Below are positions 13,096 through 64,000 of a DNA stretch of 64,000 nucleotides, piece by piece. A program made the translations under genes and the position numbers. Below the pieces are notes generated by a model, which saw nothing but the letters and a program-made list of their open reading frames with translations, did not search any database and was not told where the DNA came from. The stretch covers positions 42,333-106,332 of the IMG/VR virus record IMGVR_UViG_3300033074_001909; one strand, 5' to 3'. The DNA comes from a virus (lineage: Duplodnaviria; Caudoviricetes). The stretch's first letter is position 1; the number at the start of each line of letters is the position of its first letter.

Positions 13096-13947
13096 ATGCG
13101 TTATTTCGCGTTACTGCTGCTCTTGTTTGCTCACGAAGCCCACGCCTGCCAGCGGTGTGGTCTGTTTGGGAATCGCTGCCGTTTTGTCTCGAGGCCTGTC
13201 GTGCAACAGCATGTGGTGTCACAACCAGTCGCTGTGGCGCCGGTCGCGACGTATCAATCGCCAGACGTATTCGTTGTGCAGAATAACTACCCGCAGCCGA
13301 ACGGTACGATCGGACTCCTGGCCCAGCAGGGCACGAGCGTGTACGGATATCAGGCCGCGGCCGCAGCGTACTTCGTAAATCCGGCCGAGACTTTGCGGCA
13401 AGCGGCAGAACTCGCCAAGGCGGCCAGTGCGACCGCCTCGATTGGCCTCACGGGCTACAACGAGACGGCACGCACGCAACTGACGCTGCAGGCGGCCATC
13501 GCGGAGCCGCTCGCGAAGGGGCAAGCGGCCGCGCAGGTCTTGGGCGCCGCGGGACTGTCGGCGCCATCCTCGCAGTCGCAATCATTCGCCCTGCGAATCT
13601 CGCAGGACTCCGCCGGACGCTGGCAGGTGACGCAAGCCGACCCCGCGCAAGTGTCCGCGACGGTCCACGCCGAGATCAACGAGCATTCGACGCCGACAGT
13701 TCCTGCGAGGCCCGTCAACGGCGCCTCGGTGCTGGCCGCGAAGTGCGCCCGGTGTCACGGGCTGAATCTCACCGAGCCCAAGGGCGGCATGTTCCTCGAT
13801 GCGGGTCATCCGTTGGACTGCGCTACCGTGGTCAAAGCGATCAAGCAGGTGAAGAGCAATAAGATGCCACCCGACGGTGGGCTGACGGATCAGGAAAAGG
13901 GGTTACTTCTCGACGAACTGCTTTCTCTCGAAAGGGACGGGTCATGA
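13096..13947 (+). CDS. Secreted protein with C-terminal cytochrome c-like domain
   Basis: Signal peptide MRYFALLLLLFAHEAHA; 'KCARCHG...KMPP...LTDQEK' (CxxCH plus candidate distal Met). Confidence 0.7.
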   Translation: MRYFALLLLLFAHEAHACQRCGLFGNRCRFVSRPVVQQHVVSQPVAVAPVATYQSPDVFVVQNNYPQPNGTIGLLAQQGTSVYGYQAAAAAYFVNPAETLRQAAELAKAASATASIGLTGYNETARTQLTLQAAIAEPLAKGQAAAQVLGAAGLSAPSSQSQSFALRISQDSAGRWQVTQADPAQVSATVHAEINEHSTPTVPARPVNGASVLAAKCARCHGLNLTEPKGGMFLDAGHPLDCATVVKAIKQVKSNKMPPDGGLTDQEKGLLLDELLSLERDGS

Positions 13948-15256: not shown

Positions 15257-16777
15257 ATGATGAGACAAGTCTGGTTGGCGGTCCTGTGTCTGGTTGCCGG
15301 CTGGTTGCCGGCTCAAGATCAGCCTTTGCAGTACTCGACTCGCCTGCGGACGGTGGAGCCAGGTGGCAAGTGCCATGTGTGGTTTCCGCAGAACGTGGCT
15401 GGCCCGAGTGGTCGGGGATACATCCCCAAGCTGCCGGTCGGCTGGACGTACGCGTATCCGGGCACTTACGGACGTGGTTGGTCCGAGTGGCATCGCGGAT
15501 GGGCCTGGGAAATTCAGGTCGCGCGGGACGCGCAGCCAGGTGCGTATGCGCTCGATTTCATGGACCAGGGTCAACCAGTTCCCGGGCTGACGCCGATTGT
15601 CGTGACGGTCTGTGCGCCGGCTCCCAAACGGCGCCTGAAGCGGCTGATGTCCGCCACGACGGCCGACCTGCAGTTTTACTTGGACCAGGGTTACGATCTG
15701 GAACTGGGTCCCTTTGAGTTTGTGATTACTACGCCGCTACAAGTGCCGGACGGGGCCCGGATTTGTTCGACCGGTGCGGCTCGCCTAGTGCGGACCGCCG
15801 ACCGCCATCCCGAGAACCATCCTCACCATGAAATGTTCATTCCGGAGGGGCGCTTCACGCTCGAGCGCGTGATACTCACTCACGACGGCACCATGCCGGC
15901 GGAGCCGTTGTACCTGCACAAGTGGCCTCGTGATACCTCACCCACCTGCCCCAATGTGACGGTGACCCAATGCGTGATCGAGCGCGGTTACTTGGGCAAG
16001 GCCACGGAGTCGAACATGGCCGTGGAGCGGTGCCGGTTCGCCGGCGGCGGGACGGGCATCACGCCCCTGAACGGTCGGTACGACTACTGTGAGTTCACTG
16101 GTACTTCCCCGGATCAGAGCCACAGATTCCTGTGCTGGGGAGCCAATGGCTTGCTGCTCACGAATAACCGGTTCGCCGGCACCTCGCGGGGATTTGTGTT
16201 CCAAACGGGGGACGTCGTCGGAGCCGCGTTGCTCGACAACTATTGCACCGGGATCCGCGGGGGTAGCGGCAACGCGAATGAGTGCCTCCTGTTTGAAGCG
16301 GGCACTGGATCGCCCATTGCCTGCGACGACGCACATGGTTGCCGAAATAACCTGGTCGTCGACCTGTGGATCAACGATTGTGCCGGGCCCGGCGTCTCGC
16401 TGTACGGATCCGGGATGCACGACAACCAGTTTTGGGGCGTGGACGCGCACACGGATAACAGCAGCCTGTACGTGATCGCGATCGGCGACGGACAAATCAC
16501 ACGTAACCAGTTTCACAATTGGCAATGCACGGGAGGAGTCGTGTTCCACGGTGATGTGGGACAGGTCACTTTCGGTAATATGCAGCTGCTCGAGTCACAG
16601 CAACGGCGGGGCAACCAAGGGCCGTTTGCACCTGTGATTCGGCACTTCAACGAGCATTATCCGTTCGACCTGGATGAAGAGGCGCGACAAACTGGCGTAT
16701 TCACGCTCTCGGGCGTCGGGCTTCTAATGCCCAACCGGACGTACGTGCCAATCGATGAGCTGACCGGGAAAAAATGA
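15257..16777 (+). CDS. Secreted right-handed beta-helix (pectin lyase-like) protein
   Basis: Signal peptide; repeated 'xxCxF/xxNNxF' beta-helix-like units. Confidence 0.5.
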   Translation: MMRQVWLAVLCLVAGWLPAQDQPLQYSTRLRTVEPGGKCHVWFPQNVAGPSGRGYIPKLPVGWTYAYPGTYGRGWSEWHRGWAWEIQVARDAQPGAYALDFMDQGQPVPGLTPIVVTVCAPAPKRRLKRLMSATTADLQFYLDQGYDLELGPFEFVITTPLQVPDGARICSTGAARLVRTADRHPENHPHHEMFIPEGRFTLERVILTHDGTMPAEPLYLHKWPRDTSPTCPNVTVTQCVIERGYLGKATESNMAVERCRFAGGGTGITPLNGRYDYCEFTGTSPDQSHRFLCWGANGLLLTNNRFAGTSRGFVFQTGDVVGAALLDNYCTGIRGGSGNANECLLFEAGTGSPIACDDAHGCRNNLVVDLWINDCAGPGVSLYGSGMHDNQFWGVDAHTDNSSLYVIAIGDGQITRNQFHNWQCTGGVVFHGDVGQVTFGNMQLLESQQRRGNQGPFAPVIRHFNEHYPFDLDEEARQTGVFTLSGVGLLMPNRTYVPIDELTGKK

Positions 16778-16929: not shown

Positions 16930-17994
16930 ATGACCACGACACGGAGCGAACAACTGTTCGCCATCGTCGACCGATTCAACCAAATCCATCGCGACTGGGC
17001 GGAGTTCGACACGAACAATCCCGAGCCCACGGAGTTGTACTGGCGCGCGCTGCAGGCCGTGCTGGATACGTTCGAAGGGGGCGACCTGCCAGCGGACTGC
17101 CGCCCCATGGCCGCCGCCGTCTACAAACTGGCCCAAGAGCGGGCCCGTTACGATGCCTCCGGGATGACCACGGTGCCGCAGTCGCTGTTTGCCGCGCGCG
17201 AGGAACTGGAGCGGGTAGCCCGGGCCGCACGCTCGCCGCTTGAGCGTCCCCATCGGGAAACTATTCAGGAACTGGCCAAGCAGAACGTCCCCCATGAGCA
17301 GATTGCCCGTATTTGGGGCCTGCGCCGCCCGGACGGTACGGGCCGGGCCGACCTCGTCCAGCAGGAACTGAATCAGCCCGGTTCGGTGATCGGGCCCAAC
17401 TATGTGCATCCCGAGGACCGCATGGCGCATGACCAAGTGCTGGTCGAGCGCCGCAACTGGCAGGCTTTGGAGGTGCTCAGCCAGAAGGAGCAGGAACGGA
17501 TCGAGGCGGATCAGAAGCCCTGTCCCGAGACGCCGCGGGAACTGTGGCTGATTGGGGTCAGCACGGCGCAGGCGGCGAGGATGTTGCGGCAGCCGCAAGA
17601 GCAGGTGGCCCGCCTGTGGGACGAGTTCGAACGGGAAAAGGTCGCGATTCAGACGGCGCAGGAGCGCCCGGCGCCCGTAGCGCCGCCCGCACCGGCGGTG
17701 GTAACTCCGCCGCCGGTGGCCGAAGCGGCCACGGCCGATCCGCTGGACGACATGCTGGGCGCAGCCGGCGACAGTCCCTACGCGCAGTTTGACGGCTGGA
17801 GCGAGCAGGAACTGCGGATCGAAGCCAAACGCCTGGGAATTCGCCTGCGAGGCCGCTTCACGCGTGAAACGCTGATGGATCGCATTTTGGCCGCGGATCC
17901 CACGGCAGAATTGGTGGATGACGACAGCGTCGCGGGCGTCGATGAGTTCGACCACGAGGGCGTGACGGTCGGCGAGACGGAGGAACCAACGTAA
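16930..17994 (+). CDS. Hypothetical protein with C-terminal HeH/Rho-N-like motif
   Basis: 'WSEQELRIEAKRLGI..TRETLMDRI'. Confidence 0.55.
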   Translation: MTTTRSEQLFAIVDRFNQIHRDWAEFDTNNPEPTELYWRALQAVLDTFEGGDLPADCRPMAAAVYKLAQERARYDASGMTTVPQSLFAAREELERVARAARSPLERPHRETIQELAKQNVPHEQIARIWGLRRPDGTGRADLVQQELNQPGSVIGPNYVHPEDRMAHDQVLVERRNWQALEVLSQKEQERIEADQKPCPETPRELWLIGVSTAQAARMLRQPQEQVARLWDEFEREKVAIQTAQERPAPVAPPAPAVVTPPPVAEAATADPLDDMLGAAGDSPYAQFDGWSEQELRIEAKRLGIRLRGRFTRETLMDRILAADPTAELVDDDSVAGVDEFDHEGVTVGETEEPT

Positions 17995-18401: not shown

Positions 18402-19004
18402 ATGGGCAAACGCCGGATCAAACCGAGTGAACGCAAGCCGGTCGAGCCACCGCGCAAGCGGCGACGCGGCGTGGTGGACGAACCACCGGACCAAACGCCG
18501 CCCGATCCCGAGCAGACCAGCCCGTTCGAACACCTGCGGAACCCCAACCAGCGAATATTCCTGCGGGTGTACTGTCAGTGCTGGAGCATTACGCAGGCGG
18601 CCGAGGCGTCGGGCCTGTCGATATGGGCGCATTACTACTGGAAACGCACGGATGCGCTGTACCGGCGCGCGTTTGTCCTAGCCTGGAAAATCGCTGGGGA
18701 CCGGTGCGAGGAAGAGGCGTATCGCCGGGCGGTGACGGGTCTTCGCCGCTTGAAGTTTGGGCCGAAAGGCAAGCCGCTGATTGATCCCGCCACGCGCCAG
18801 CCCTACGTGGAGCACGAATTTTCGGATCGGCTGCTCGAGCGGCTGCTGAAAGCCTTCAAACCACATCGCTATTGCGACCGGCAGGAGACGCAGCACAACG
18901 TGTCGGTGGATAGTCCCGCGCAGGGCAGTGGGGGCATGACGGATCTCTTAAAGACCTTCTGTGATACACCACCAGAGTCCCCCGAATCTGCCGCTGCACC
19001 ATGA
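18402..19004 (+). CDS. terS: Terminase small subunit
   Basis: HTH 'SITQAAEASGLS..HYYW', 'EEEAYRRAVTG', 'FSDRLLERLLKA'; directly upstream of terL. Confidence 0.75.
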   Translation: MGKRRIKPSERKPVEPPRKRRRGVVDEPPDQTPPDPEQTSPFEHLRNPNQRIFLRVYCQCWSITQAAEASGLSIWAHYYWKRTDALYRRAFVLAWKIAGDRCEEEAYRRAVTGLRRLKFGPKGKPLIDPATRQPYVEHEFSDRLLERLLKAFKPHRYCDRQETQHNVSVDSPAQGSGGMTDLLKTFCDTPPESPESAAAP

Positions 19005-21624
19005 GTCGATCCGCGACTGGCTGCACGCGGCGGCCACGATTCCGATTCAGTGGCGACGTCGGAAGTATCTGCGCGACTGCCTGCGGGCCTCGTCCGAGTT
19101 GCGGGCCAAGTTGATCGAGAAGAACGACAGCCGGTTGACCACCCATATCCAACGGCTGTTCACGCATCCCTATTTCGCGTTCGAGCCCCGGCCCGATAAT
19201 CCCGCCGCCGGCGATCAGCAGACCGGGTTTCTGGAGTCGCAGGCCTTCACGACAGTGGCTCTGGGAGGCACGGGTAGCGGCAAGAGCTACATCGGCTCAC
19301 AACGGGCCATCAAGTTCCTCTGCGAGGATCAGCGACCGCCAATCAAGGACACGCCCTTCTTCGTGATCGCCGACAACCTGGAGGAATCCTCCAAGGCTTG
19401 CTGGGCGCAGAAACTCCACGATCTGTTGCCGCGGGAGTGGGTCGACTGGGACCGCATTACCTGGCGCAGCGCGAAGATGAATTTTCCGCGCATCGTGCCG
19501 CTGCGGCCCTGGCAGGACGACCCCAAGACGAACTGGGCGATTTACTTCTGCGGCTACACCCAGGACCGCAAGGCCTTCCAGGCCATCGCGGCCGGCGGCG
19601 CGTGGTTCACGGAACAATTCCCGTACGACATCTACGAGGAAGTCGTCGGGCGTATGCGACAATGGATGTTCAACGGCGCTCTGTGGCTGGAATTCACGCC
19701 GCTGGATCCGACCGACAGCGTCAAAGTCCAGGAGCTGTACGAGAAGTGGACGCGGGGCGAGCTCGACGAGGATCAATGGTCGTTCTACCGCCTCAACACC
19801 GAAGAAGCGGCGAAGAAGGGACACGTCAAGCAGGAGTTTGTCGACACGCTCAAGGCGACGATCTCACCCGAGATGCTCGCTACCCGCTTGCGCGGGGATT
19901 TCGGCTCCTACGAGGGTGTGATCTATCAGAGTCTCAACCCGCTAGTGCATTTCGTGCCCGGGACGCAATACGACAAGTGTCCGCGCGATATTAACCTGAC
20001 GTACAAGCGAGGCATCGACTGGGGCGCCGGCCCATCGAATGCGTTTGTCGTCTTGTGGGGCGCCAAGGATTCCATGGGCCGCTGGTTCATTTTCGACGAG
20101 TATTACACCACGGATCAGCTCATGACCTGGGAAGATCACGTGCGGGAGATTCACAAGAAGGATGGGTGGAAACTCATTGGCCAGATAGACCGCGGTCTGA
20201 CGACGTACCGCCTGGAGCCGATCCCAGGCGTGCCGCAGCGGTGGATTTACGAGCGCTCGAATTTTGGCCAGACCTACGCGCCACCCGAGCAGCCGGACTT
20301 ATTCCGTGAGTTCGCGAAATACTGCCTGCCCGTGACGCCAGCCCGGAATGCCTTTCACCCCGGCGTGGATTGCGTGCGGCGGCATTTGAAATTCGACGAC
20401 TTCACGCTCGAGCAGCGGACCGAGCCGCAACTGTTCATCGATCGGCGCGCGTGCCCAAATCTGGCAAGAGAACTGCCAGCGCTGCAGTGGAAAGACCCGC
20501 CCAAGGCAGGCGTGAATCCTTCAAGCGCCAAGATGGAACAGAAAAAAATACATGACCACTCCTGCACGATTTCTTCGACGCTCGTGTTGACGGAATCGGG
20601 ATGGAAGCCAATTATCGAGATCCAGCGAGGCGAGATGGTGGCCTCGCTCGACGGCTGGACTCGGGTGGAATGCGGAGCGGTCAAGACGGGCGTAAATCGC
20701 CCATTGGTGCGAATCACGTTGGACAATGGGGCCGAGGTGGTGTGTACTCCCTGCCATCGGTTCCCGACGGAGGATGGATCATGGATCGCGGCGGAACACC
20801 TGCTGGGCCGACGTTTGGCGAAGTGGTGCGATACACCACCAGGAGTGGGCAGATGGCGGAATCCATCGAGTACGGCGGAATGGTGTGGCGACGATACCCC
20901 AACTCGCGATTCCCGGCTGCTCGCTACTTCGTCAAGCGAGTTGGTAAGCGGCCTGATGCCATTCTTCTCCATCGCAGGATCTACGAAGATTTTGTGGGAC
21001 CAATTCCAAAGGGAATGGCCATCCATCACAAAGACGGGTGCATTACCAACAACCACCCATCCAACCTGGAACTTTGCACGTTCCGGGATCATTCACAAAA
21101 GCATGTGTCCGACAATGTCAACATGCGACAAGGCTTACGCGAGTGGCGACAGAAGCAGCCAGGACAACTTCGTCAAATCGCGAAAAATGCCAGCGACGCC
21201 TACTGGAGTGATCCACGCGTGGTCAGCCTTACTTGCTCGCATTGCGGCATCGCGTTTTCGTCAAAGGACGTGCGCACTAACCGAAAGCGATACTGCTCTG
21301 GTGCATGCAATCGGCAGGCGTTGCGAACCGAAAAGCGGCTATGCAAACATTGTGGCCAGGAGTTCTTGGCGGCATCCTTCGAGCCAAACGTCTTTTGTAG
21401 CAAGCGGTGCTCTGCGTGTTATGGAGGTATCCTCCTGCGGAACCGCCGACACGTACTGCATCGCGACTGAGTCGGGTTCGATGGTGTGGGGAGGCGGAGT
21501 CGTGGCGTCAAACTGTGATGCATTGCGCTACCTGCTATACTCCGACTGGATGGGCAACACGGGTGGCATCGAAGCCTTCCAGGCCCCGCAGCCGCATCGT
21601 CCGCAAGTGCGATTAAGGAAATGA
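18961..21624 (+). CDS. terL: Terminase large subunit containing an intein
   Basis: Walker A GGTGSGKS, nuclease 'GIDWG', C-terminal 'DHS|CDALRY' split by an intein. Confidence 0.9.
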   Translation: MIHHQSPPNLPLHHESIRDWLHAAATIPIQWRRRKYLRDCLRASSELRAKLIEKNDSRLTTHIQRLFTHPYFAFEPRPDNPAAGDQQTGFLESQAFTTVALGGTGSGKSYIGSQRAIKFLCEDQRPPIKDTPFFVIADNLEESSKACWAQKLHDLLPREWVDWDRITWRSAKMNFPRIVPLRPWQDDPKTNWAIYFCGYTQDRKAFQAIAAGGAWFTEQFPYDIYEEVVGRMRQWMFNGALWLEFTPLDPTDSVKVQELYEKWTRGELDEDQWSFYRLNTEEAAKKGHVKQEFVDTLKATISPEMLATRLRGDFGSYEGVIYQSLNPLVHFVPGTQYDKCPRDINLTYKRGIDWGAGPSNAFVVLWGAKDSMGRWFIFDEYYTTDQLMTWEDHVREIHKKDGWKLIGQIDRGLTTYRLEPIPGVPQRWIYERSNFGQTYAPPEQPDLFREFAKYCLPVTPARNAFHPGVDCVRRHLKFDDFTLEQRTEPQLFIDRRACPNLARELPALQWKDPPKAGVNPSSAKMEQKKIHDHSCTISSTLVLTESGWKPIIEIQRGEMVASLDGWTRVECGAVKTGVNRPLVRITLDNGAEVVCTPCHRFPTEDGSWIAAEHLLGRRLAKWCDTPPGVGRWRNPSSTAEWCGDDTPTRDSRLLATSSSELVSGLMPFFSIAGSTKILWDQFQREWPSITKTGALPTTTHPTWNFARSGIIHKSMCPTMSTCDKAYASGDRSSQDNFVKSRKMPATPTGVIHAWSALLARIAASRFRQRTCALTESDTALVHAIGRRCEPKSGYANIVARSSWRHPSSQTSFVASGALRVMEVSSCGTADTYCIATESGSMVWGGGVVASNCDALRYLLYSDWMGNTGGIEAFQAPQPHRPQVRLRK
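20563..21513 (+). mobile_element. Intein (317 aa) in TerL
   Basis: Starts with Cys (CTISSTLVLTESGWKPI), block B 'CTPCHRF', ends '...VVASN' before Cys+1. Confidence 0.85.
20853..21470 (+). CDS. HNH homing endonuclease nested in an alternative frame inside the TerL intein
   Basis: SD AGGAG at 20841-20845; 'LHRRIYEDFVGPIPKGMAIHHKDG..NNHPSNLEL'; C-terminal CxxC zinc ribbons. Confidence 0.85.
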   Translation: MAESIEYGGMVWRRYPNSRFPAARYFVKRVGKRPDAILLHRRIYEDFVGPIPKGMAIHHKDGCITNNHPSNLELCTFRDHSQKHVSDNVNMRQGLREWRQKQPGQLRQIAKNASDAYWSDPRVVSLTCSHCGIAFSSKDVRTNRKRYCSGACNRQALRTEKRLCKHCGQEFLAASFEPNVFCSKRCSACYGGILLRNRRHVLHRD

Positions 21625-22559
21625 CCATGGCACGACTGAATGCCTCCCAGCGTCGGCAGGTCATCCGGAACGCGACCCGCGAACTGCGCCGCTCGGGCGG
21701 ACGTCGCAGCGGATCGGGAGAGCCTGGCCCGTTGGGCGGCCTATTCCGCACGCTGGGGGCCCGCTTCGGGCCGCTGGGCGAGGTCATCGGCATGCTCGGG
21801 GATATCCTGTCCGGCGGACGGCGGGTGACCCGGCGCAATATCGAAGACGCGGTGCGGATCCTGACCGAAGAGGGATTTGAAGTCGCGCCAGCGCCACCGG
21901 AGGCGCCCCCGGTAATTGTGCAGCCTCCGCCGGTGGTGCCGCGTGGGGTACGCCCGGCCCCCGCGGTGCCGCCGGCATCGATTCCGCCGCTGCCGCCACA
22001 GGAACCGGCCGATCCGTGGCCCGCCGAACATTCGGTCCGGATTCTGCCGCGCCGTGTGCGAGGCGTCTACGACAGTATCCCGGCCGACATCGACACCTTC
22101 CAGGGCTGGATCCTCACGCCCCAGAGCTCCAACGTGCATGCGGTCGCGTACCACGAGGGTATCCTCTACGTGTGGTATCGGGCCGCTGGCAAGCCGACCG
22201 GGTACAAGGACGGGATCTCGTTATGCACCGGGAAGGCCTATAAGATCGGGATCCGGCCCGACGTGCCGGGCCCGATCTACTCGTATGGTGGCGCAGGCCG
22301 TCCGGTGCCACAGTCGGTGTTTGACGCGATTGCCACGTCGCGTTCGCCAGGCAAGCAGGTCTGGGACAAGTTGCGCGTGTGCGGATCGCAGTGGCAGCAT
22401 CAGTACGTGTACACGCTGACCGATGTGCCCATGGGTCAGGCGGTGCCCCGCAAGGCGACGCGTCGCGGGTTGGCGGTGCGCAATGTCCCCAATGTCGGTC
22501 TGGGGCCACGTGGATCTCGCCGTAGCACGCTGCCCGCACGTGTGGCGGGGATCCGGTAA
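21621..22559 (+). CDS. KTSC-like domain protein
   Basis: 'SSNVHAVAYHEGILYVWY...YSY...VPQSVFDAIATSRSPGK'. Confidence 0.6.
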   Translation: MTMARLNASQRRQVIRNATRELRRSGGRRSGSGEPGPLGGLFRTLGARFGPLGEVIGMLGDILSGGRRVTRRNIEDAVRILTEEGFEVAPAPPEAPPVIVQPPPVVPRGVRPAPAVPPASIPPLPPQEPADPWPAEHSVRILPRRVRGVYDSIPADIDTFQGWILTPQSSNVHAVAYHEGILYVWYRAAGKPTGYKDGISLCTGKAYKIGIRPDVPGPIYSYGGAGRPVPQSVFDAIATSRSPGKQVWDKLRVCGSQWQHQYVYTLTDVPMGQAVPRKATRRGLAVRNVPNVGLGPRGSRRSTLPARVAGIR

Positions 22560-22573
22560 TTGGCTCCGCATTC

Positions 22574-22628
22574 GTTGAATGCCCGCGCAGTGGCTTCGTT
22601 GCTGCGAGTACAGGTCGACCCACGCCTT
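22574..22628 (+). CRISPR. Solitary Cas12m-type repeat + 20-nt guide-length segment (plus strand)
   Basis: GTTGAATGCCCGCGCAGTGGCTTCGTTGCTGCGAG at 22574-22608 (stem CGCAGT/GCTGCG kept), then TACAGGTCGACCCACGCCTT. Confidence 0.75.
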
Positions 22629-22808
22629 TGGGCAAGAGCCAAGCCTCTGCGCGGGCACTTCGACCGGTTGGGACGAGTTCTGCGCAGCCCAAATCCGGAA
22701 CGCTCGCAGAAACAAAGCCCCTGCGCGGGCACTTCGACTTGTCGACAACCTGGATCCGGTCGAGCACCGGCTCTCGCAGGAACAAAGCCCCTACGCGGGC
22801 ATCATCGC
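22629..22808 (-). CRISPR. Orphan mini-array: 3 repeats, 2 spacers (34 and 38 nt)
   Basis: Repeats at 22773-22808, 22703-22738 and 22629-22664 are reverse complements of the main-array repeat, e.g. GTCGAAGTGCCCGCGCAGGGGCTTTGTTTCTGCGAG. Confidence 0.9.
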
Positions 22809-23008
22809 TCTAACCTGGGCCGGCCTTCGCTCCGCGGTCGACTGAGTCCCCCGCGAATCGACTTCGGTAGTTTCGCCGCGCCCGCATCACGCAGCCATTC
22901 CGACAGCGATTTACCTTCCTTCGCGGCCGCCGCCAGAAAGGCCGTCCACCAATCCTGCGGCGCCGTGATGTTGCGGCGGATCGTATCGTCTCCATGGGGC
23001 TCTGTCAT
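22802..23008 (-). CDS. Small ribbon-helix-helix regulator
   Basis: 'RRNITAPQDWWTAFLAAAAKEGKSLSEWLRDA'. Confidence 0.65.
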   Translation of the reverse strand: MTEPHGDDTIRRNITAPQDWWTAFLAAAAKEGKSLSEWLRDAGAAKLPKSIRGGLSRPRSEGRPRLER

Positions 23009-23021
23009 GCCGGTGATCCTA

Positions 23022-25398
23022 TCACGTCGTGACCGTTATCTGCAGGGTGGCTTTCTCGCGAGTCCAGCCATGCTGCCGCAGCATCCGCGCCTCGAGCAGT
23101 TCCACGCGGTCAAGGCACTGCTGGAGAAATCCCTGTGGCAGATCATAGTCGAGCCCCCAGAACCACTTCACAACCAGCCAGGTTTGGCGGTCGGTGATTG
23201 GTTTCGCGAGTTCCCGCTCCAGGCGGGTAGAAATAGCTTGCGTGGTGGTCATGGTTTGGACGCTCCATTGATTCGGAGTAGGTGCAGCTCGAATCGGTCC
23301 TTCTCTTCCTGCGTCGCTGGCCGAATCTCAACCGTTTCGCCCGCCTGCAAGGCTGCTTGCACATTAGACCAGTCCGACCGAATGCCTCCTGCGGTGTACA
23401 AGCACGACATGAGCGTTGCGCTGTCGTGGTAAAAATGCTCGCCGATGTAAATCAGTTTCATGGTCTTCATGGTCATGCTCCTTGTGAAGAAAATATCGAC
23501 CGTTGGCCGCGAATGGCCGGCGTCAGCATGCGGGCCGCTCCCCTCGCGGGTCGCGGAAACCACCGGCGACGGTCGTCGCGCCGGATCGACGCCGCAGCCC
23601 ACCTGCCGGACCGCATGACCGGGTGGCCGTCAGGATTGCGGGCTGCGGCGGTTTAGTCAGGTATGCTGGCGGCATCCGCGTACCGGAACGCAAACCCCGG
23701 CCCAGTGGCATCGACGAGATACCGGATGCCGGAATCTCCACGATAATTCCGAGAGCCCATCGACCGGGGCACCGGCGTTGAGCCCGGTGACGTGGTGTCC
23801 CGTGGGCATACACTCGATCAGCATCCGCTCGAACTCATCCGTCGGAAGGATACGTGCCACGTCGCGTCGTGGCACATCGGTGCGCCGCGAGCCGAAGCCA
23901 ATATTCCGGCGCCCGGTGATGATGAGTTCGTCGCCAATACGCTCGATGGTGTCACTGATTTTCATGATTCTCTCCGTGATCGAATGCCGCCTTGGGACGG
24001 CCGCCGGGCTCACCAGAGCCCGGCGGGGCATTAGGCCGCGAAAGCGGCCCCCTCTGCATCTACCCGTCGTACTTGACGCGCACAACGCAATGCCAGCCGG
24101 CCGCACCGTGCCAGGACATGGGCTCCTCGTCCTCCTGGCCGTCGACGTCCGGCGACGTGTCAGCCATGCCGCACTCGCCGCAAAACGTCAGGCCGCAGCC
24201 GTCCGGTGCCTCGTAGACTCGATATCGCGTGGCCATGGTCGTCTCCTTGTGTCTCTGCTACTCAGCCGCCTGGATGATTTTGGCGACATCCAGATCGCCG
24301 TTGCACGCCGCGTAAATCGGATCGCCATCCGTGTATTCTTCGCCTGGATCGTCCAGGCTGTCTACCATTCGCTCGGCAGCAGCGGTTACCTGCTCGGGCG
24401 TCAGCTTGGCCGCCACAAACGCATTGGCGGTGGCGGCATCCCAAACGCCAATTTCACACCACGGACGCGCCGTAGCGGCGGTGAAACCGTAATCGATCCA
24501 GTTCTCGGCCTCGTCCTTCGGGTGATTGCCAGTAAACATGCCGCCGTGGTTGCTGAGCATTTCCATCATGTCTTGAAGATCCCGATCGATGGTCGTCATG
24601 GTCGTGTCTCCTCGTGAAAGAAAATCTGGTCGCCGAGCCGCCCCATCGGCTACACAATGTTCGTCGCCTCAGGAATCACTCCGTAGCGATTCAGCAGCCC
24701 CACACGCCGTCGCGCGGCTGCTTCTGCCTGCTCTTGCGATGGATAGCCGCCGTTGCACCACGTGGCGTCGCCGATGTCGATGCGGTAGCCAAAACATCCA
24801 GCACTGTAGCCTTCCGGATTCTCGATGATCGTGATGTTGGCTTGCGGGCGTCGTTCGGTCATGGTCGTGTCCTCGTCTTCGTGTTGGATAAAACCGGGGC
24901 GGCCCGAAGGCCGCCCCTCCGTGGGCGTCAGAGCGACTCTACCGCAGCGAAACGGCTGCGGTAGTCCGCCGGGGTCATTCGCTCGGCTGTTACTGCCCCG
25001 GCTGCGTCCAGCCGGAGCAGCGTGTACAGCCAGTCCCTCCGGCCGCGATAGCCGGAGGTGACGATGATGATGCCCGTCGAGGGCACCCGAAAGACAGCGG
25101 CGGCGAAATCGTTGCCGCCGCTCGACGAGGTGGCTACGACCCCGGTCGGTTCGACCGGTGGCAGTTCTTTCGTGGCAACTGTCTTCGCCTGCTCGGGGCA
25201 GGCGAAGCCGTGGAACGTTCCCGCGTCATCTGCGTGCCACAGCACGCAGATGCCTGGGGACAGGCCAATCTTACGGTCGCCGATCGTGGCGACCTGGCCG
25301 TCGGCGTCGACTGCCAGCGACACACGCCGGCAGTTCGCGCCGGCTTGGCCGGACACGCTTTGCCCCGCCTTAATTCCGAGCAACATATTCGTGGACAT
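23022..25398 (-). other. Cluster of small minus-strand genes (23022-23252, 23249-23476, 23657-23965, 24060-24236, 24258-24599, 24650-24862, 24928-25398), putative early region
   Basis: Each gene has a similar GGAG/GAGGA...ATG ribosome-binding context; hairpins in the intergenic gaps. Confidence 0.65.
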
Positions 25399-25440
25399 GA
25401 GAATCTCCGTTCGTGGAAGTGGCTTGGTTGTGATGCGTAT

Positions 25441-25484
25441 ACTCTACACACTGTAAACGGCAGAAGTCAATAACAGTACACACT
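25441..25484 (-). promoter_or_regulatory. Sigma70-like promoter for the minus-strand cluster with direct repeats
   Basis: TTGACT-18 nt-TAGAGT on minus strand; TACACACT at 25445-25452 and 25477-25484. Confidence 0.55.
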
Positions 25485-25559
25485 ATTTTTTATCGAAATC
25501 CGGAAATAGTCGCAGTAGTCGATAGGGCATGGATTTAGGTATCATGCCCACAACAGGAC

Positions 25560-25604
25560 GGCACCTCGTTCCGAGGCCCGGGAGTCACTCCTTGGGCCTT
25601 TTTT
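25560..25604 (+). terminator. Conserved motif + intrinsic terminator ahead of the portal gene
   Basis: GGCACCTCGTTCCGA, then GGCCCGGGAG...CCTTGGGCC and T6. Confidence 0.65.
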
Positions 25605-25614
25605 GTTGGGAAAG

Positions 25615-28600
25615 ATGAGCATGACCACCACGCAACCAGGCGGGCAGCGGATCGGCGGACAGACCTACATGCCCGGGCAGATGCTGCCCGAACGCTATCG
25701 CCGCGTGCTGGAGCCGTCCGACCGGCCCCGCGATCCCGCCGTCCGTGATCCGGATCTGGCTCCCAACTTAGGCCGCCATACCGTCCCGCACATCATCACC
25801 TTCCAGGGGCTGGTCACCTCCCTAGCCCGGGCCTATCGCAATCCAGACGAGGCCTTCCGACACAGCGTCGAAAACGCCCACATGATGCTGACGGACCCGA
25901 CAGTGAGCGGGCCCTTGCACGCGCGGCAGATGATGACGGCGCTGCTCCAGTGGTCGGTGGAAAGCGAGGACGACAAAGATTCACAGCTCAAAGAAGCGGC
26001 CAGCCAACTCCAGAAAGTCCTGGAACGGACGCCGCGGTTCGCTGAACTGCGCCGGTGGCTGCTGGAAGCTATCTGGTATGGTCGCGCGGCCAGCCAGCAC
26101 GCGATCGGATTCCACCGCGATCGCTTCGGCGTGCGACGCAGGGTGATCAAGAAATGGCTGCCGATCTCTGGCGACAAGCTTCTCTTCCGCTACGACGACG
26201 GGAGCGGGGAGTTCGACCCGGATCAGATTGGCGTGCGGGTCAGCCCGGGACTCGGCCGCGAGGATATCATCGCCGGGCGGCGCAAACTCGAGGCCACAAC
26301 CGACGGCATGGGCTACTTCCTGGAGCCCTGGGAGCGTCGGCACTGGGCGGTCCACAAGCACATGATCCGCGACGGGGAATTCGAGGATCCACTCAGCGCA
26401 GGGCAGGTGCATGGCGTCGGCCTGCGGCACTTTCTCTATTGGGTCTGGTATCAGAAGCAGGAGGCTATGGCGCAGCTCGCCGAGGTGCTCGACCGTACTG
26501 GCGCGGGGATCACCATCTACTATTACCCCGTCGGGAATCAGGAAGCGAAAACCCAGGTGGAAAAGGTGGCCCGCGAGCAGGCGCACACCAACGTGCTGGT
26601 GATGCCGTTCGACCCGGCCAGCACAGGCGGCGACCCGTATTCGATTCAACAAATCCCGCCCAACGTAGCCGGCCTGCAGGCCCTCCAGGACATCGTGGAC
26701 GGTTATTTCGGCGACATGATCACGCGGGCCATTCTGGGTCAGACGCTGTCCAGCAAACCCTCCGCAGCGGGCATGAATACGGGCGTCTCGGATCTTCAGA
26801 AAGACTCCCTGTTCCATATCGTGCGATACGACGCGGTCAATCTCCAGGAAACCATCACGCGGGAGATCCTGTTGCCGCTGCGGGACTTCAACCTACCGAA
26901 GTTCCGCAACGTGGATTTCTTCTTCAAAATCTCGACCAAAGTCAGCGCGCCGCAGGAAGAACTGGCCGCCATTTATCAGGCCTGGCAGATGGGCACCAAA
27001 ATCCGCGTCCAGGATCTCTTCCAGAAGCTCGACATGGCCATGCCGGACAAAGACGACAAGGTCGTGTTTAACCCGCAGATTGTGTCAGCCATTCAGCAGG
27101 TCGAGAGCGCCCCGATGGGTGGTCTCGCCCCGCCCGGTGGCGCCGGGCCTCAGCCTCCCGGCGCCACCCCATTTCCACCCGGTGCTGCGGAAGGCACCCC
27201 TACAAGTGAGGGCGGGGGCCAAAATGAACCCCCGCCCATAGATAGAGGGGGTGCCAGCGGCCAACCGGAGCAACTGGATAAGGCCGAAAGCCCCGAGCAG
27301 GAACGCCGGAAGTTGTTTGGCCCGATCCTGTACGGTAAGCGCGAGGAGTATCTGGAGCGGATCAGGGAAGCGGTCGAGAACACCGAGCCCAACCCCACCG
27401 AGGCCCAGCGCGAGGCCGGCAATTATCGCAAGGGCGTGGTGCATTGGCGGGGTTTAGAAGTGGTGATCGAGACGCCCAAGGGTCAGCGGCGGCGCCCGGA
27501 ATGGCCAGCTCTGCGGGCGCATTACGGCTACATCCGCCGGCATTACCACACGGGCGAGCAACGGCTAGTCACCAGCGAGCCGTGCGCCGACGGCGACCAT
27601 CTGGATATCTTCTTGGGGCCACAGCCCGAAAGCGACATCGTGTTCGTGATCGACCAAGTGACGGCCGACGGAAAGTTCGACGAGCACAAGTGTATCCTGG
27701 GCACGACCAACAAGCGGGACGCCCGGGCGCTGTACCTGTCGAACTATGCGGACGGGTGGAAGTGCGGTCCGATCCGGGGCATGACGATCGAGACGTTCAA
27801 GCACTGGCTCGAGCACGGAGACCTGACGAAGCCGGTGGCGCGCCAGAAACTCAGGTACGCGCGGCAATTGTCGCTGTTTGACGATACGTTCTCGCTGGTG
27901 CGCAAGCCGAGATCACTCTTTGACGAAGGATCGCATCCCCGGGCAAAAGAGCATGTGGAGATCCAGGGCAAGGAATACGAAGGCGGGCAATGGATCCCGA
28001 AAGACGCGGCGGTGGAAGCCACGCCAGCGGCCCAAGAGAAAATCGAGGTAGTGGACAAGTCCACGGGCGAAACCGAACCACTTGAGCAAACGCTGAAACC
28101 TGGGGATAATGCCACCGCATCGCCACCGAGTCCCGAGGACGACTCCCATGACCAACCACGATCCGACGCAGAATTCGCACCTGGAGAGCCAGATTCCACC
28201 GGAGGAGATGGAGATCGAGGACGACCTGACGACGGAGAATCTGGCGGCGCAGGCGATTTGGGAGCAAATCCAGTTGGACCGTCAGAAGAACGGATCGTCA
28301 CCTCACGCCAACAGCACACGCGCCCAGCGGATCGATCCCTCGTTCCAGAGCGACTTCGACAACATCTAGACGACCACCAGCAGGAAGGCGTCGCCAAGGC
28401 GATTGCCTCTCTTCGGGATGTTGGTGGCTTCCTTAACTCCGACGGGACTGGCGTCGGTAAGGCGCAGCCGCTCGACGAACCGATTTTGACTCCCACCGGA
28501 TGGAAGCGGATGGGCGATCTGCAAATCGGCGATGAAGTCATTTCAGCCGACGGATTTCCCACCAAAATCAGTGGCGTCTATCCGCAAGGGCACCTGGAAG

Positions 28601-46529: not shown

Positions 46530-47279
46530 ATGACCGCCCCGCAATTATTTGCCAGCTACTGGCCCGAGGGACCGCATCGCTGCTACTACTGCGGCGGGCG
46601 ATGCGACGAGACGCATCGAGCTGCTGATCTGGTCCAGTCGTCGTTTACCGCACGTGATACCGTGGCTGGCGGTGAGTACGTGTGCCCTGGCTGCATCGCT
46701 GCGATGGACGAGAGGGCCACGATTACGCTGGCCGACGGCGAAGTGCGCGAAGGCCAGCGGGTCCGCTGCTACTCCTGGGTCATCACTGCCGAAGCGGCGA
46801 TCGCTGCCACCAAAGCTCATCGCGCGTGGCTGACAGGAGCGTGCCTGTCGCCTCCAGAACCGCCCTACGTCATCTCGATCAGCGACAGCGGGCAACGGCA
46901 CCTGCTGTATCGTGCCGTCGTATGCCATTCTCGCGAGATCATTACCGCCACTCTGGAGGGCGAGCGGGTAACATTCACACCCTATGAGCTTGACGAGCGG
47001 TTGACGCTGTGTCGCAAACTGATCGCGGCAACCGGCAAGCCGGCTCTGTCCGAAGCACCGACTGCACGATTCGGCATGTCGGTAGTCTCGCATCACGACG
47101 ACGAATCACTGATCTCCACGTGGCTGGAATGTCGCGAGCAACCGCTGTCTCGCCTGGCGGCGTGGCTCTCGCCTCCCAAGGAGGAATGCTTACTTGAGTT
47201 CCCAGCACCAGCAGCTCCCGCCCCCACTGCCTGTGCTCGACACCGAGCAGTTCAGGCAACGTTTAGCTGGCTTGATTGA
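46530..47279 (+). CDS. csf1: Type IV CRISPR Csf1 (Cas8-like large subunit)
   Basis: CxxC...CxxC zinc finger; 'PPEPPYVISISDSGQRHLLY'; operon context. Confidence 0.8.
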   Translation: MTAPQLFASYWPEGPHRCYYCGGRCDETHRAADLVQSSFTARDTVAGGEYVCPGCIAAMDERATITLADGEVREGQRVRCYSWVITAEAAIAATKAHRAWLTGACLSPPEPPYVISISDSGQRHLLYRAVVCHSREIITATLEGERVTFTPYELDERLTLCRKLIAATGKPALSEAPTARFGMSVVSHHDDESLISTWLECREQPLSRLAAWLSPPKEECLLEFPAPAAPAPTACARHRAVQATFSWLD

Positions 47280-47667
47280 CCAGCGATCCGAAGTGGACGC
47301 CGAAGATTTCGCCAGCGTGGCGGCGTGCGCTATCCATTTTGTCTCGTCGCTGCCGATTGTGTTCGGCGAGCAGCTCGAGCGCACCACACTGTGGGATAAG
47401 ATCGGCGCCGCCCTGGATACCGCTTACGCCAAGACCGCCGCCGATGATTGCGACTTCTTTATCAGTCGCGTGCTGGAGTCGATCCTGGCTTCTCCGGCGG
47501 CCGTCGCTCGCTGTGAGGCCATCGGCCAGGTGATAACGTGGCTCTCCGCTGCGCCGACTGAGATGCGGCACGCGTGGCTGCAGTACATCGCCACGCACCG
47601 CTATGCCGTGCTCGTACGCGCTCGCATGGCCTGGGAGCAGCAGAAGGAGGCTCGCGCCAATGCCTGA
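47194..47667 (+). CDS. cas11: Type IV-B small subunit (Cas11-like)
   Basis: Small helical protein between csf1 and csf2; RBS AAGGAGG. Confidence 0.6.
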   Translation: MSSQHQQLPPPLPVLDTEQFRQRLAGLIDQRSEVDAEDFASVAACAIHFVSSLPIVFGEQLERTTLWDKIGAALDTAYAKTAADDCDFFISRVLESILASPAAVARCEAIGQVITWLSAAPTEMRHAWLQYIATHRYAVLVRARMAWEQQKEARANA

Positions 47668-48544
47668 GACCTATACGATCCTCTGCGTGAGTGAAGCCGC
47701 CTCGCCAATCACGCACATGAGCGGCAGCGCCGGCAATGAGGCGATTATCGCTCGTGCGCCCGTGATGACGGATCGCGGGAAACTGTGGATACCATACCTC
47801 TCAGGTAATGCCCTGCGCCACCGTTGCGTGCGAGATCCAGGCGTGGATTTCCTTTTGGATCTTTACGAACTGCGAGGCAAACTTACACTGCCGCAGCTCA
47901 ATTTCCTGCGGCACGGCGGAAATCTCACGGAGTCCACCGCACACGAGAACACGGCCCGCATCGCCGAGATGAAACGCACTTGGCCGCTACTGCGATTGCT
48001 GGGTGGCTCGTTGCCAAACCAGATCCTGGCCGGCAGCCTGCAAGTCTGGCGTGGTGAACTGGTGTGCGAGGAAAACCGCCAATACCTGGCCACGCTCGGA
48101 GACTGGCTGCCCACGCGGCGACTCAAGGCTGCCGAGGAGTTCATCGGGAACTACCAGTACACGCGCGGCGATGCCGCGAAGTCCGGCGAGGCTCAGGCGG
48201 AGGAGGATCGCGAGAGCAATCTGATGATCTTCGCTGGCCAGCAGGTCAATCGTGGCTCGCTGTTTGTGCATGGCTTCGTGGCGCCTCACGCGTCGCGCGT
48301 CGAACTGGGCGCGCTGCTGCTGTCGCTCCGACTCTGGCAGTCCCGCGGCGGGACGATCGGCGGACAAGCGGCGCGCGGCCACGGCCGGCTGGCGATGTCC
48401 CTGGTCGGTGCGATCGACCAGTCGTGTGTGGACGAGTACGTCGAGTACGCGATCAGCGTGCGAGATGCGGCGATCGCGTGGCTTGAGGACTGCTTTGCGA
48501 AGCGAGCCGACAAGCCAGCGAAGACAAAGAAGGTGAAGGCATGA
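47660..48544 (+). CDS. csf2: Type IV CRISPR Csf2 (Cas7-like RAMP)
   Basis: 'SPITH', 'PYLSGNALRH', 'LRLLGG', 'IGGQAARGHG'; RBS AAGGAGG. Confidence 0.85.
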   Translation: MPETYTILCVSEAASPITHMSGSAGNEAIIARAPVMTDRGKLWIPYLSGNALRHRCVRDPGVDFLLDLYELRGKLTLPQLNFLRHGGNLTESTAHENTARIAEMKRTWPLLRLLGGSLPNQILAGSLQVWRGELVCEENRQYLATLGDWLPTRRLKAAEEFIGNYQYTRGDAAKSGEAQAEEDRESNLMIFAGQQVNRGSLFVHGFVAPHASRVELGALLLSLRLWQSRGGTIGGQAARGHGRLAMSLVGAIDQSCVDEYVEYAISVRDAAIAWLEDCFAKRADKPAKTKKVKA

Positions 48545-49206
48545 GCCTGCTCGTGATCGCGCACCTATCGTCGCCGCTGGCCGGTGATGCGCCGATGCTG
48601 GACGGACTGCTCGAGTTCGAGATGTCGCAGAGACTCGGTGCGGCGTATAAGGTCCGCCGCGATCAGCCTGCACCGCCCGCCGGAGCGATCCATATTCCGA
48701 TGCTGCGGCGCGGTATCGGCGGTTGGAGTGTTCCGCTCTGCTCGTCACCGATCTACACCGCCGAGAGTGATCGGCATGAGTACATCGGCAAGCGGCTGGC
48801 GGTCGAGCACGCCAGTGATTTACGCGAGGATGCACGGCTGGTCGTGGCGATGGGCAACGCGACCTACAAGTCATATCGCCTACCGCTGCGAGTGAGGAAT
48901 GTGTCACGCGTGGCGTGGTTCTGCGAGGGGCATCGATCGCCGATTTTGAAGCTGCTCAAATCGGTACACGCGATCGGCCGGAAGCGGTCAGATGGATACG
49001 GTCGCGTGGCGCGATGGACTGGCGAGAACGTGGATGGCAATCATCACTGGTACGGCGAGAGCGAGCACGGCCCGGTGCTCATGCGACCGCTGCCGTTTGG
49101 CGACTGGCTGCCGCGCAGCCTGCTCGGCGCGAAGCGAGATTTCGGTGCGGTCGTCGCGCCGTACTGGCATCCTGATCGCTATGCGGAGATTGTGGTGCCA
49201 TGCTGA
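48541..49206 (+). CDS. csf3: Type IV CRISPR Csf3 (Cas5-like RAMP)
   Basis: 'LDGLL', 'IGRKRSDGYGRV', 'MRPLP', 'PYWH'. Confidence 0.85.
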   Translation: MSLLVIAHLSSPLAGDAPMLDGLLEFEMSQRLGAAYKVRRDQPAPPAGAIHIPMLRRGIGGWSVPLCSSPIYTAESDRHEYIGKRLAVEHASDLREDARLVVAMGNATYKSYRLPLRVRNVSRVAWFCEGHRSPILKLLKSVHAIGRKRSDGYGRVARWTGENVDGNHHWYGESEHGPVLMRPLPFGDWLPRSLLGAKRDFGAVVAPYWHPDRYAEIVVPC

Positions 49207-49931
49207 TTCGCACTGCTCGCCACACGGCCGCAGACCTGGCATTGTGGGAGTCGCTCGAGGACGCCGACATTCTGAGGCAGGACGTGGCCGCCTATCGCGC
49301 ACGGTACGCTGAGGCGCTGCACGCGATCGCCGCGTTTACATCCGCAGGCGAGTGCTACGCCGGCATCAGTTGGGGGAAGGACTCTACCGTGCTGGCTCAT
49401 CTGATCCAGTGCGTCGCGCCTGACACGCCACTAGCCTGGACGCGAGTAGAACCGATCGCCAATCCAGACTGTGTGCTCGTGCGAGATGCGTTCCTGCGAT
49501 TGCATCCGCACGCGAACTATCACGAGATCACGGAGTGGTGTGAGTGGCGCGATGGAGAGTGGCACGCCACTGGCACGCTCGAAAGCGGCATCGCCAAGTG
49601 CCGAGAACGATGGGGAGAGCGGACGATACTCGGTATTCGAGCCGAGGAGAGCACCCAGCGTGGGTTCCGCATTTGGCGCCACGGACTATCGACGGATCGG
49701 TCGTGTGATCCACTGGGACGCTGGCGCATCGAGGACGTGATGACCTGCCTGGCAATCGAGGGACTGCCGGTGCATCCGGCTTACGCCATGCTGGGAGGCG
49801 GGCGCTGGCCGCGAGAGCAACTGCGGGTCTCGTCGCTCGGCGGTCGTCGCGGCGATGGCCTCGGGCGAGCAGAGTGGGAGCGCGAGTATTACGGCGATGT
49901 GGTGCGACGGCTGGCCATGACGGACACCTGA
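49200..49931 (+). CDS. PAPS-reductase (CysH)-like protein of the type IV-B system
   Basis: PP-loop 'SWGKDS', 'GIRAEES..R', 'PLGRW...DV', 'LPVHPAY'. Confidence 0.85.
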   Translation: MLIRTARHTAADLALWESLEDADILRQDVAAYRARYAEALHAIAAFTSAGECYAGISWGKDSTVLAHLIQCVAPDTPLAWTRVEPIANPDCVLVRDAFLRLHPHANYHEITEWCEWRDGEWHATGTLESGIAKCRERWGERTILGIRAEESTQRGFRIWRHGLSTDRSCDPLGRWRIEDVMTCLAIEGLPVHPAYAMLGGGRWPREQLRVSSLGGRRGDGLGRAEWEREYYGDVVRRLAMTDT

Positions 49932-59847: not shown

Positions 59848-59955
59848 CTCGCAGAAATCAAGCCTCTGCGCGGGCACTTCAACGATCCCGACCGGGAATA
59901 CGTGATGTCCGGACTTGACCTCGCAGACACAACGCCTCTGCGCTGGCATTCGCGC
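59848..59955 (-). CRISPR. Orphan mini-array: 2 repeats, 1 spacer (36 nt)
   Basis: Repeats at 59920-59955 (GCGCGAATGCCAGCGCAGAGGCGTTGTGTCTGCGAG) and 59848-59883 (GTTGAAGTGCCCGCGCAGAGGCTTGATTTCTGCGAG). Confidence 0.9.
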
Positions 59956-60148
59956 TATCTTCATAGTCCGCCACTACGCTCGTCAACACTGGACGGGAGT
60001 TCAGTAGATAGCGTCGGGCCAGCGGCCTACGATACCAGTGCCATCGAAGTCCCCTTGCACAGCTCACCACGATGCGAATTTCCCTGCGCCTCGCGCTCGA
60101 ACTTCGGTGGCCATCGTGGTGAGCGTTTTTTTGCGCTAGGGCCCAGTC

Positions 60149-60343
60149 ATGCGCTGGACAATCCGCGATCTATTCTACGTGCTGACGATCACCGCCATGG
60201 CCATCGCCTGGACGCTGGACGCCCGACAGAACTACGGGTCACCGACCGTCGGTAAAGTGTGCGAGGAGTGCGGCAGCGATGGCAACGCCCACACCCTGCG
60301 CTGCCCCGTGATTGCTCGTCTTATTCTTCACTCGGAGAACTGA
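60149..60343 (+). CDS. Small membrane peptide of a Planctomycete-type 'R(F/W)(S/T)IRDL' family
   Basis: MRWTIRDLFYVLTITAMAIAW followed by CxxC. Confidence 0.55.
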   Translation: MRWTIRDLFYVLTITAMAIAWTLDARQNYGSPTVGKVCEECGSDGNAHTLRCPVIARLILHSEN

Positions 60344-60345
60344 TC

Positions 60346-63628: not shown

Positions 63629-64000
63629 GTTGAAGTGCCAGCGCAGAGGCGTTGTTTCTGCGAGACCGGATAATTACACATCGGTCGAGATCGAGCAGGC
63701 GGGTTGAAGTGCCCGCGCAGAGGCGTTGTTTCTGCGAGGGGTGCCGATTAGCCCATCGCTTGACCGGCCTACGGATGTTGAAGTGCCAGCGCAGAGGCTT
63801 TGTTTCTGCGAGTCGACCGTCTGGGAGGATGAGCCGCGGGGTGCCGTCGTGTTGAAGTGCCCGCGCAGAGGCTTTGTTTCTGCGAGCCTACGAGGACCTA
63901 GAGACGTACGTCGTCTCATCGACGTTGAAGTGCCCGCGCAGAGGCTTTGTTTCTGCGAGCGTTCTGGATTCGAGCAGCTGGGCGGACAGATCTTCGTGGA
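63629..64000 (+). CRISPR. CRISPR array, at least 5 repeats (36 nt) with 37-38-nt spacers, probably continuing past the window edge
   Basis: Repeats at 63629-63664, 63703-63738, 63777-63812, 63851-63886 and 63924-63959; consensus GTTGAAGTGCCCGCGCAGAGGCTTTGTTTCTGCGAG. Confidence 0.97.

Follow-up and report, generated by a model that had tools for sequence, protein, structure and literature searches.

A lone Cas12m repeat unit behind a phage packaging operon, probably a single-guide RNA gene or a mark of a shared transcript end

Our analysis found an intact repeat unit of a phage's own Cas12m system standing alone at the end of the operon that encodes its terminase. This crRNA handle, at 22574-22608 on the plus strand, was recognized by a covariance model and by its paired helices, and its probable role is to supply one fixed guide RNA or to mark a shared transcript end. 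It is oriented like the operon that precedes it, its fold is intact, and the effector cognate to it is encoded in the same genome. We are fairly confident that it is a maintained Cas12m-binding RNA element, and its sequence and predicted fold would place it in the type V-M crRNA family.

The solitary unit in its genome

The window, that is, the whole 64,000-nt stretch of DNA analyzed here and the source of all coordinates unless contig positions are named, is the last 64 kb of a single contig of 106,332 bp from a virus record. The two contig ends (contig 1-75 and window 63924-64000) share a repeat and a complete 38-nt spacer, which indicates that the 106-kb genome is circular or terminally redundant and closes through its main CRISPR array. 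The same DNA was found in wastewater, sludge, and aquatic metagenomes (12 studies). The cognate effector gene, cas12m (61489-63507, plus strand; 672 aa), matches PDB 23vw, 'DNA-binding protein Cas12m' (E 1.6e-40), Cas12m2 8hhl (E 4.5e-14), and PADLOC's Cas12u1 (E 1.2e-75), so that the assignment made in the initial annotation holds. The three acidic residues at its RuvC positions align with those of 23vw.

We counted 31 repeat units in the genome, spread over six sites, and the 28-nt core pattern occurs 10 times in the window, as against none in 100 shuffles. The main CRISPR array lies 3' of cas12m on the plus strand (63629-64000, continuing at contig 3-614) and has about 14 repeats of 36 nt. 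One minus-strand mini-array faces the solitary unit, and a second one, with two repeats and one spacer, lies at 59848-59955 on the same strand. The two remaining sites are compact plus-strand clusters outside the window, of seven (contig 15385-15713) and four units (contig 17645-17839). Both occupy gaps between genes, conserve only the 3' 28 nt of the repeat, and show compensating stem changes; their final units end 17 or 40 nt short of the start codon of the next gene. The handles in these clusters are spaced by 11-31 nt, and guide-sized spacers are thus normal for this phage.

Several other features of the window were recorded. The second mini-array ends 20 nt from the stop codon of a converging plus-strand gene (58031-59827), and a plus-strand hairpin with a T-run lies beyond it (60062-60135), so this array may be antisense within the 3' untranslated region of that gene. 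The product of a gene at 60259-61422, between the 59.9-kb mini-array and cas12m, belongs to the DUF1559 / N-terminal methylation motif family (Pfam, E 1.6e-49), which is characteristic of Planctomycetota and hints at a host from that group. A type IV CRISPR effector operon (46530-49931) encodes Csf1 (E 1.7e-60), Csf2 (E 3.6e-76), and Csf3 (E 1.7e-31; all by PADLOC), with a weakly PAPS-reductase-like ORF following the Csf genes. It comes without an array of its own, and the phage thus has two effector types.

The solitary unit sits where two operons converge. On the plus strand, the genes for the small (TerS, 18402-19004; phrog_4044, E 9.8e-19) and large terminase subunits (TerL, 18961-21624; Pfam Terminase_6N, E 2.9e-7) start the late packaging operon, and a 312-aa gene from the ORF list (21621-22559) is the last one before the unit. 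Its start overlaps the TerL stop by 4 nt, and we therefore read the three genes as one operon. The initial annotation had called this last protein KTSC-like, which stands in part: homologs at 50-75% identity carry PF13619, but the protein itself has no Pfam match. Neither Pfam nor NCBIfam gave a family for it or for the small minus-strand ORFs. Its closest relative (P0026, 75% identity) is encoded on a 57-kb contig. No relative was found in IMG/VR or among GenBank phages, and the repeat is absent from six JGI or marine loci with relatives at 35-55% identity.

On the minus strand, the operon that enters the mini-array ends with a 68-aa ORF (22802-23008; phrog_6506, E 9.7e-4) that is weakly Arc-like, as in a repressor. 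The stop codon of this ORF falls inside the first 7 nt of repeat 1 (22802-22808), leaving no gap between gene and array, which would explain why the 5' 7 nt of repeat 1 (22773-22808, minus strand; 43.6 bits) are divergent while its core is intact. Further along the same strand come spacer A (34 nt, 22739-22772), the intact repeat 2 (22703-22738, 53.2 bits), and spacer B (38 nt, 22665-22702; no self match), both spacers being delimited directly in the sequence. The array closes with a decayed terminal repeat (22629-22664, minus strand; 36.9 bits) that keeps its first 24 nt, mismatches the repeat in its last 12 nt, and has lost the 3' arm of the stem.

The solitary unit is a 35-nt repeat copy that begins after a 14-nt gap from the operon's stop codon (22557-22559). 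It has a 1-nt deletion in its 5' part, three core differences from the repeat consensus, and the stem CGCAGT/GCTGCG, with U.G as the closing pair. Directly 3' of the handle lie 20 nt with no second copy in the 106-kb genome (22609-22628, plus strand), enough for a guide of at least 17 nt; this segment, a candidate guide, also forms the loop of a long hairpin described below. The initial annotation had reported the plus-strand variant with its altered stem, the start 14 nt past the KTSC-like gene, and the 20 nt before the opposite-strand terminal repeat. All three were confirmed, the figure of 20 presuming a full 36 nt for the decayed terminal repeat.

The handle compares well with the units in arrays and clusters. 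Under the repeat covariance model R1 it scores 45.8 bits (E 2.8e-8), where the other 29 intact units span 35-56 bits, and it keeps all 10 of the invariant columns in an alignment of 24 units. The repeat folds into a 6-bp stem (columns 14-19/29-34) and a second, pseudoknot helix of 3 bp (columns 9-11/20-22), which are paired in 96.8% of the cells of this alignment. Across units, three of the nine pairs are changed on both sides, a figure never matched by shuffles or by shifted registers, and this suggests selection at the RNA level. In the solitary unit both helices are paired, and the single stem change still pairs (U.G). A stem-loop and a second helix within the 3' ~28 nt, and a cognate Cas12m in the same genome, two of the features by which we tested for a type V-M crRNA unit, are both present. 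The core is identical at 26 of 28 positions to a unit of the 17.7-kb cluster and at 20 of 28, the lowest value, to the repeat that it faces. Being nearer to a distant cluster than to its neighbor, the unit is not a fold-back copy of its partner.

Junction RNA, facing pairs in other phages, and target searches

Folding of the junction had been proposed as a check in the initial annotation. Run here on 22555-22680, it gave a single long imperfect hairpin for the plus-strand RNA (-57.8 kcal/mol, z -3.1), in which the handle pairs over 26 bp with the complement of the decayed repeat as the 3' arm and the 20-mer is the loop. The minus-strand RNA has a fold of -129 kcal/mol (z -3.3) in which one repeat binds the complement of the solitary unit. 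Complementarity between the unit and the three mini-array repeats amounts to 81-90% over 26-37 nt, with 90% over 29 nt for repeat 2. A sigma-70 scan of 21500-25700, using a consensus that may not be the host's, found no plus-strand site. The terminator scan of 22560-22680 found no site either, and no T-run follows the hairpin on either strand. With neither promoter-like nor terminator-like sites at the junction, read-through from the late operon should carry the solitary unit.

Some RNA evidence bears on this segment. Within 20000-25600, a sludge metatranscriptome (one sample, two runs) yielded a single unstranded contig of 189 nt. It spans 22433-22621 at 100% identity and so runs from the end of the gene through the entire unit into the 20-mer, of which it includes 13 nt; as a contig, it shows neither the strand nor the true ends of the RNA. 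Uncovered stretches of 20000-25600 in runs X16-X19 carry no information, and two of these runs, X16 and X17, probably consist of DNA. Carry-over of DNA, if uniform, would hardly be limited to 22433-22621. The contig counts as a hint, if a weak one, that RNA spanning the unit is comparatively plentiful and ends close to the loop. It reaches 141 nt upstream of the handle and is thus not a processed crRNA.

Solitary units also occur in other phages that encode Cas12m. A profile of Cas12m relatives recovered 16 IMG/VR loci, several of them with clearly homologous repeats, and two further lineages (G001/G002, with genomes of 176 and 102 kb, and G003/G004) carry units outside arrays. G001 has 30 copies of the repeat core, about 20 of which lie outside arrays, and all copies except for one are on the same strand. 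Many of its units have a Shine-Dalgarno-like motif and a start codon within the next 10-46 nt; in a crude ORF test, gene starts followed 10 of 18 solitary units, compared with 39% of random positions, which is not significant. Virus Rctr197k, G005, G006, and G007 have their repeats in the main array only, with no scattered units.

The lone opposite-strand copy in G001 is the partner in a facing pair (L020 5366-5477). There, 40 nt separate an intact unit from an inverted copy in which two stem positions are unpaired (L020/L021), and the pair folds at -57.6 kcal/mol (z -5.0). In G003/G004, solitary units occupy gaps of the operon upstream of cas12m. In one case (L025 9114-9149; L025/L026), the last 19 nt of the unit recur in inverted form just 1 nt past its end. 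In all three facing pairs, that of our phage included, the opposing copy is the one without a working handle. Three repeat families thus have such pairs, their gaps being 1, 20, and 40 nt, which suggests that the pairing itself matters and that 20 is no fixed rule. A further candidate for an inverted partner, a match of 12-16 nt about 90 nt past the last repeat of the main array, was rejected as too weak.

Two of these genomes have additional features of their own. In G001, a conserved palindromic hairpin with the core CCGCCCGTACGGGCGG lies about 10 nt before several solitary Cas12m units; it flanks the facing pair (L020 5325-5365 and 5480-5510), occurs also in L030 and L033, and may be a shared terminator or processing signal. 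Virus Rctr197k (L011, KX853510.1) is a 197-kb GenBank phage from a methane/anammox enrichment. Its Cas12m-like gene, annotated just as 'similar to transposase', adjoins a 1.5-kb array, and the repeat there follows the same plan (6-bp stem, 9-nt loop, 2-nt tail). Another transposase-like gene in this phage has a second array, of a different repeat, next to it.

We looked for targets of the 20-mer at 22609-22628. Neither IMG/VR nor the 185,579 GTDB species genomes contain an exact match to it, and BLAST of all spacers against the contig found no second or near copy of it in the 106-kb phage genome. We also searched the phage for self targets, over 18 nt with up to four mismatches against shuffled controls, and separately by seeds of at least 9 nt. 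The best match of the 20-mer has four mismatches in 18, and shuffled guides do as well; its seed matches (at least 9 nt) in the phage genome occur at chance, and none is close to cas12m or to the type IV operon. Spacers A and B, searched by their first 20 nt, have no exact match in IMG/VR. The spacers of the mini-array are thus equally orphan, and the missing target does not separate the hypotheses.

The searches gave some other matches. Between spacer 4 of the main array (contig 255-290) and a site of the phage itself (10006-10041, minus strand), 32 of 36 positions agree, with mismatches at guide positions 4 and 7; the site overlaps a terminator-like hairpin. An 18-nt core of this spacer recurs exactly at contig 13278-13295, and a 20-mer common to spacer and phage has no exact match in IMG/VR. 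Such a self match might mean that the spacer guides regulation of the phage itself, that it was taken from a close relative, or that the motif is a repeated one. The repeat core itself forms no array in the 185,579 species genomes. Just two single hits were found, in actinobacterial MAGs, and both were taken as chance since they lie within coding regions; a repeat-core hit in IMG/VR (L004) was discounted as coding sequence.

Possible uses of the solitary unit

We tentatively prefer to see the solitary unit as a one-guide crRNA gene that is read as the tail of the late operon. The unit would be transcribed as the 3' end of the TerS-TerL-KTSC-like message. The phage's Cas12m would then recognize the pseudoknotted handle (22581-22608), cut just upstream of it, and stay loaded with the RNA, of which the ~20 nt after the handle (22609-22628) would be the guide. 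Such a complex would bind matching DNA beside a PAM without cutting it and keep it from being transcribed, this DNA belonging to the host or to a competing element. The opposing decayed repeat would limit the guide and, by pairing back on the handle, close the transcript as a long hairpin. What leads to this reading is the intact handle, the guide-sized unique segment next to it, the compact spacing of units elsewhere in the genome, and the precedent of CracrVA1, which consists of a single repeat, a ~21-nt guide, and a terminator (bioRxiv 10.1101/2024.10.29.618823). Three roles had been put forward in the initial annotation, namely a late-expressed single guide, an RNA decoy, and an anti-repeat that folds back on the mini-array transcript. 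The single guide fits best among them, given the intact handle, the co-orientation with the operon, and the 20 nt, although no target was found. Two further observations go against it: unless protein is bound, the 6-bp stem of the handle would have to compete with the 26-bp fold-back (-57.8 kcal/mol), and in the L025 analog the inverted partner comes after 1 nt, which leaves no room for a guide.

The latter observation is easier to reconcile with a transcript-boundary or processing element, a possible use that we nevertheless consider somewhat unlikely. The unit and the opposing decayed repeat would then matter as a long hairpin at the operon junction, with the 20 nt as its loop only, and the hairpin, or Cas12m binding or cutting at the handle, would set 3' ends and prevent antisense run-in. 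Such a use fits the stability of the folded junction and its location where the late operon and the regulatory minus-strand operon converge. It also fits the recurrence of an intact unit facing a decayed inverted copy in two other lineages of Cas12m phages, the position of most solitary units, here and in those phages, at gene boundaries along the direction of transcription, and the end of the sole RNA contig within the loop. Yet the hairpin has no U-tract after it on either strand, and the terminator scan is empty at the junction. A plain hairpin would not need all Cas12m-contacting positions to be preserved, and on one arm only, as they are here. The excess of gene starts after G001 units is not significant, and Cas12m is not known to cut messenger RNAs. 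Facing pairs might also work as a Cas12m-operated switch on the phage's own RNA, which we regard as unlikely. Under such control, scarce Cas12m would let the handle pair with the inverted copy, and the hairpin would end or stabilize the transcript; abundant Cas12m would capture the handle co-transcriptionally, prevent the fold-back, and free the late messenger by cutting.

The preserved handle also weighs on the readings in which the unit has no guide function. A functionless remnant, copied by recombination or inversion between oppositely oriented arrays and still to decay, is quite improbable in our view. The phage does have arrays on both strands, which could be substrates for such events, and the 1-nt 5' deletion and the three core differences from the consensus also speak for it. 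But every structure-defining position is kept and the stem change pairs, right beside a terminal repeat whose last 12 nt mismatch; the unit is closer to a distant cluster than to its partner (26/28 against 20/28), which is not expected of a fold-back copy; and the same layout arose in unrelated repeat families. It is very unlikely that the unit is an antisense or anti-repeat regulator, whose complement, in read-through from the mini-array, would pair with repeats 1-3 and block their maturation, or which, in read-through from the late operon, would give RNA antisense to the mini-array and turn it off late in infection. The fold-back role is physically plausible, given the 81-90% complementarity to three repeats, the stable minus-strand fold, and the lack of a terminator between the two transcription units. 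This complementarity is, however, unspecific, as any inverted copy yields it, type V-M systems need no tracrRNA (PMC11013384), and the preserved fold of the plus-strand handle would be left unexplained. The least probable reading is a Racr-like RNA decoy, a handle with no guide or a useless one that would absorb the Cas12m of the host or of a rival phage. Solitary repeat units of phages can indeed inhibit Cas effectors, including Cas12a (PMC10651486). The phage, however, encodes the cognate Cas12m and real arrays itself, no array with the repeat core was found among the 185,579 species genomes, as far as these sample its host, and the unit has no promoter of its own that we could find. One unit among 30 others that look functional would titrate little. 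The decoy role proposed in the initial annotation is thus weak, with the effector encoded by the phage and the repeat absent from all bacterial genomes searched.

Comparison with known systems and implications

The crRNAs of characterized Cas12m proteins have a repeat-derived 5' handle and a 20-nt guide, with a heteroduplex of 17-18 bp; the first ~7 nt of the handle are unbound, and Cas12m processes its own pre-crRNA without a tracrRNA (PMC10442227, PMC11013384). The repeat of our phage resembles those of MmCas12m2, GoCas12m, and MsCas12m in its length of 36 nt and in its 3' ~28 nt, which hold a 6-bp stem and a short second helix. The effector family and the 20-nt downstream segment are also those of characterized type V-M systems. 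The differences lie in the setting: here a phage has a single unit outside arrays, placed in the 3' untranslated region that ends a structural operon and facing an inverted decayed repeat, and adaptation genes are missing. A tracrRNA identity was rejected on the literature, in which Cas12m is guided by a single crRNA (PMC11013384), the complementarity itself being present. An intrinsic terminator was rejected as well, since the hairpin is there but the U-run is not.

Some phage-borne RNAs come closer. Cracr and CreR RNAs (10.1101/2024.10.29.618823; 10.1101/2023.03.03.530964) share with the solitary unit a single handle, a ~20-nt spacer, a 3' structure, and carriage by phages, and the unit, like them, would direct a Cas12 protein to bind rather than cut. 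Cracrs, however, hijack the host's Cas12a and match the host cas promoter, whereas here the effector is the phage's own, no match to a cas promoter was found within the phage, and the 3' structure is an inverted repeat instead of a U-tract terminator. We rejected this identity after finding no promoter match within the phage, where a spacer of this kind should agree with the promoter of a cas or toxin gene at 9-10 or more PAM-proximal positions. Racrs (PMC10651486) are likewise solitary CRISPR repeats on viral genomes, but they mimic host repeats, are usually unlinked to cas genes, and have their own promoter, whereas the solitary unit matches the phage's own system and follows an operon. This identity was also rejected, given the phage's own cas12m and arrays and the absence of arrays with this repeat core from the 185,579 species genomes searched. 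Virus-borne mini-CRISPR arrays, to the extent that they are described in the work citing them (Medvedeva et al. 2019, as cited in 10.1101/2023.03.03.530964), fit the adjacent array at 22629-22808; by the same description, the solitary unit differs in being on the opposite strand and in having no second direct repeat. The solitary units of G001-G004 are similar in being intact handles outside arrays, co-oriented with genes, in Cas12m-encoding phages. Most of those units lie just upstream of gene starts, whereas here the unit closes an operon, behind its last gene, and has another repeat opposite it.

In the literature that we searched, phage-borne Cas12m was first claimed in September 2026, for the gene and its array only (bioRxiv 10.64898/2026.09.14.751636). 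The same literature contains no paper on solitary or facing Cas12m units, nor on either of the two uses proposed here. What would be new is a solitary repeat, or single-guide crRNA-like RNA, that serves the phage's own non-cutting effector and is built as a facing pair.

The phage studied here places single handles and mini-arrays at the ends of operons, and the locus is small, some 250 nt and one gene. Natural units made of a compact handle and 20 nt are of practical interest for multiplexed Cas12m tools. If the unit encodes a fixed guide, it would be a hard-wired, late-expressed silencer, and its target would reveal what the phage has to silence. A boundary element would instead mean that a CRISPR effector acts on the phage's own messages. 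The switch, if true, would mean that a CRISPR effector has been recruited as an RNA-processing or transcript-boundary factor, both here and at the dozens of solitary units in related phages.
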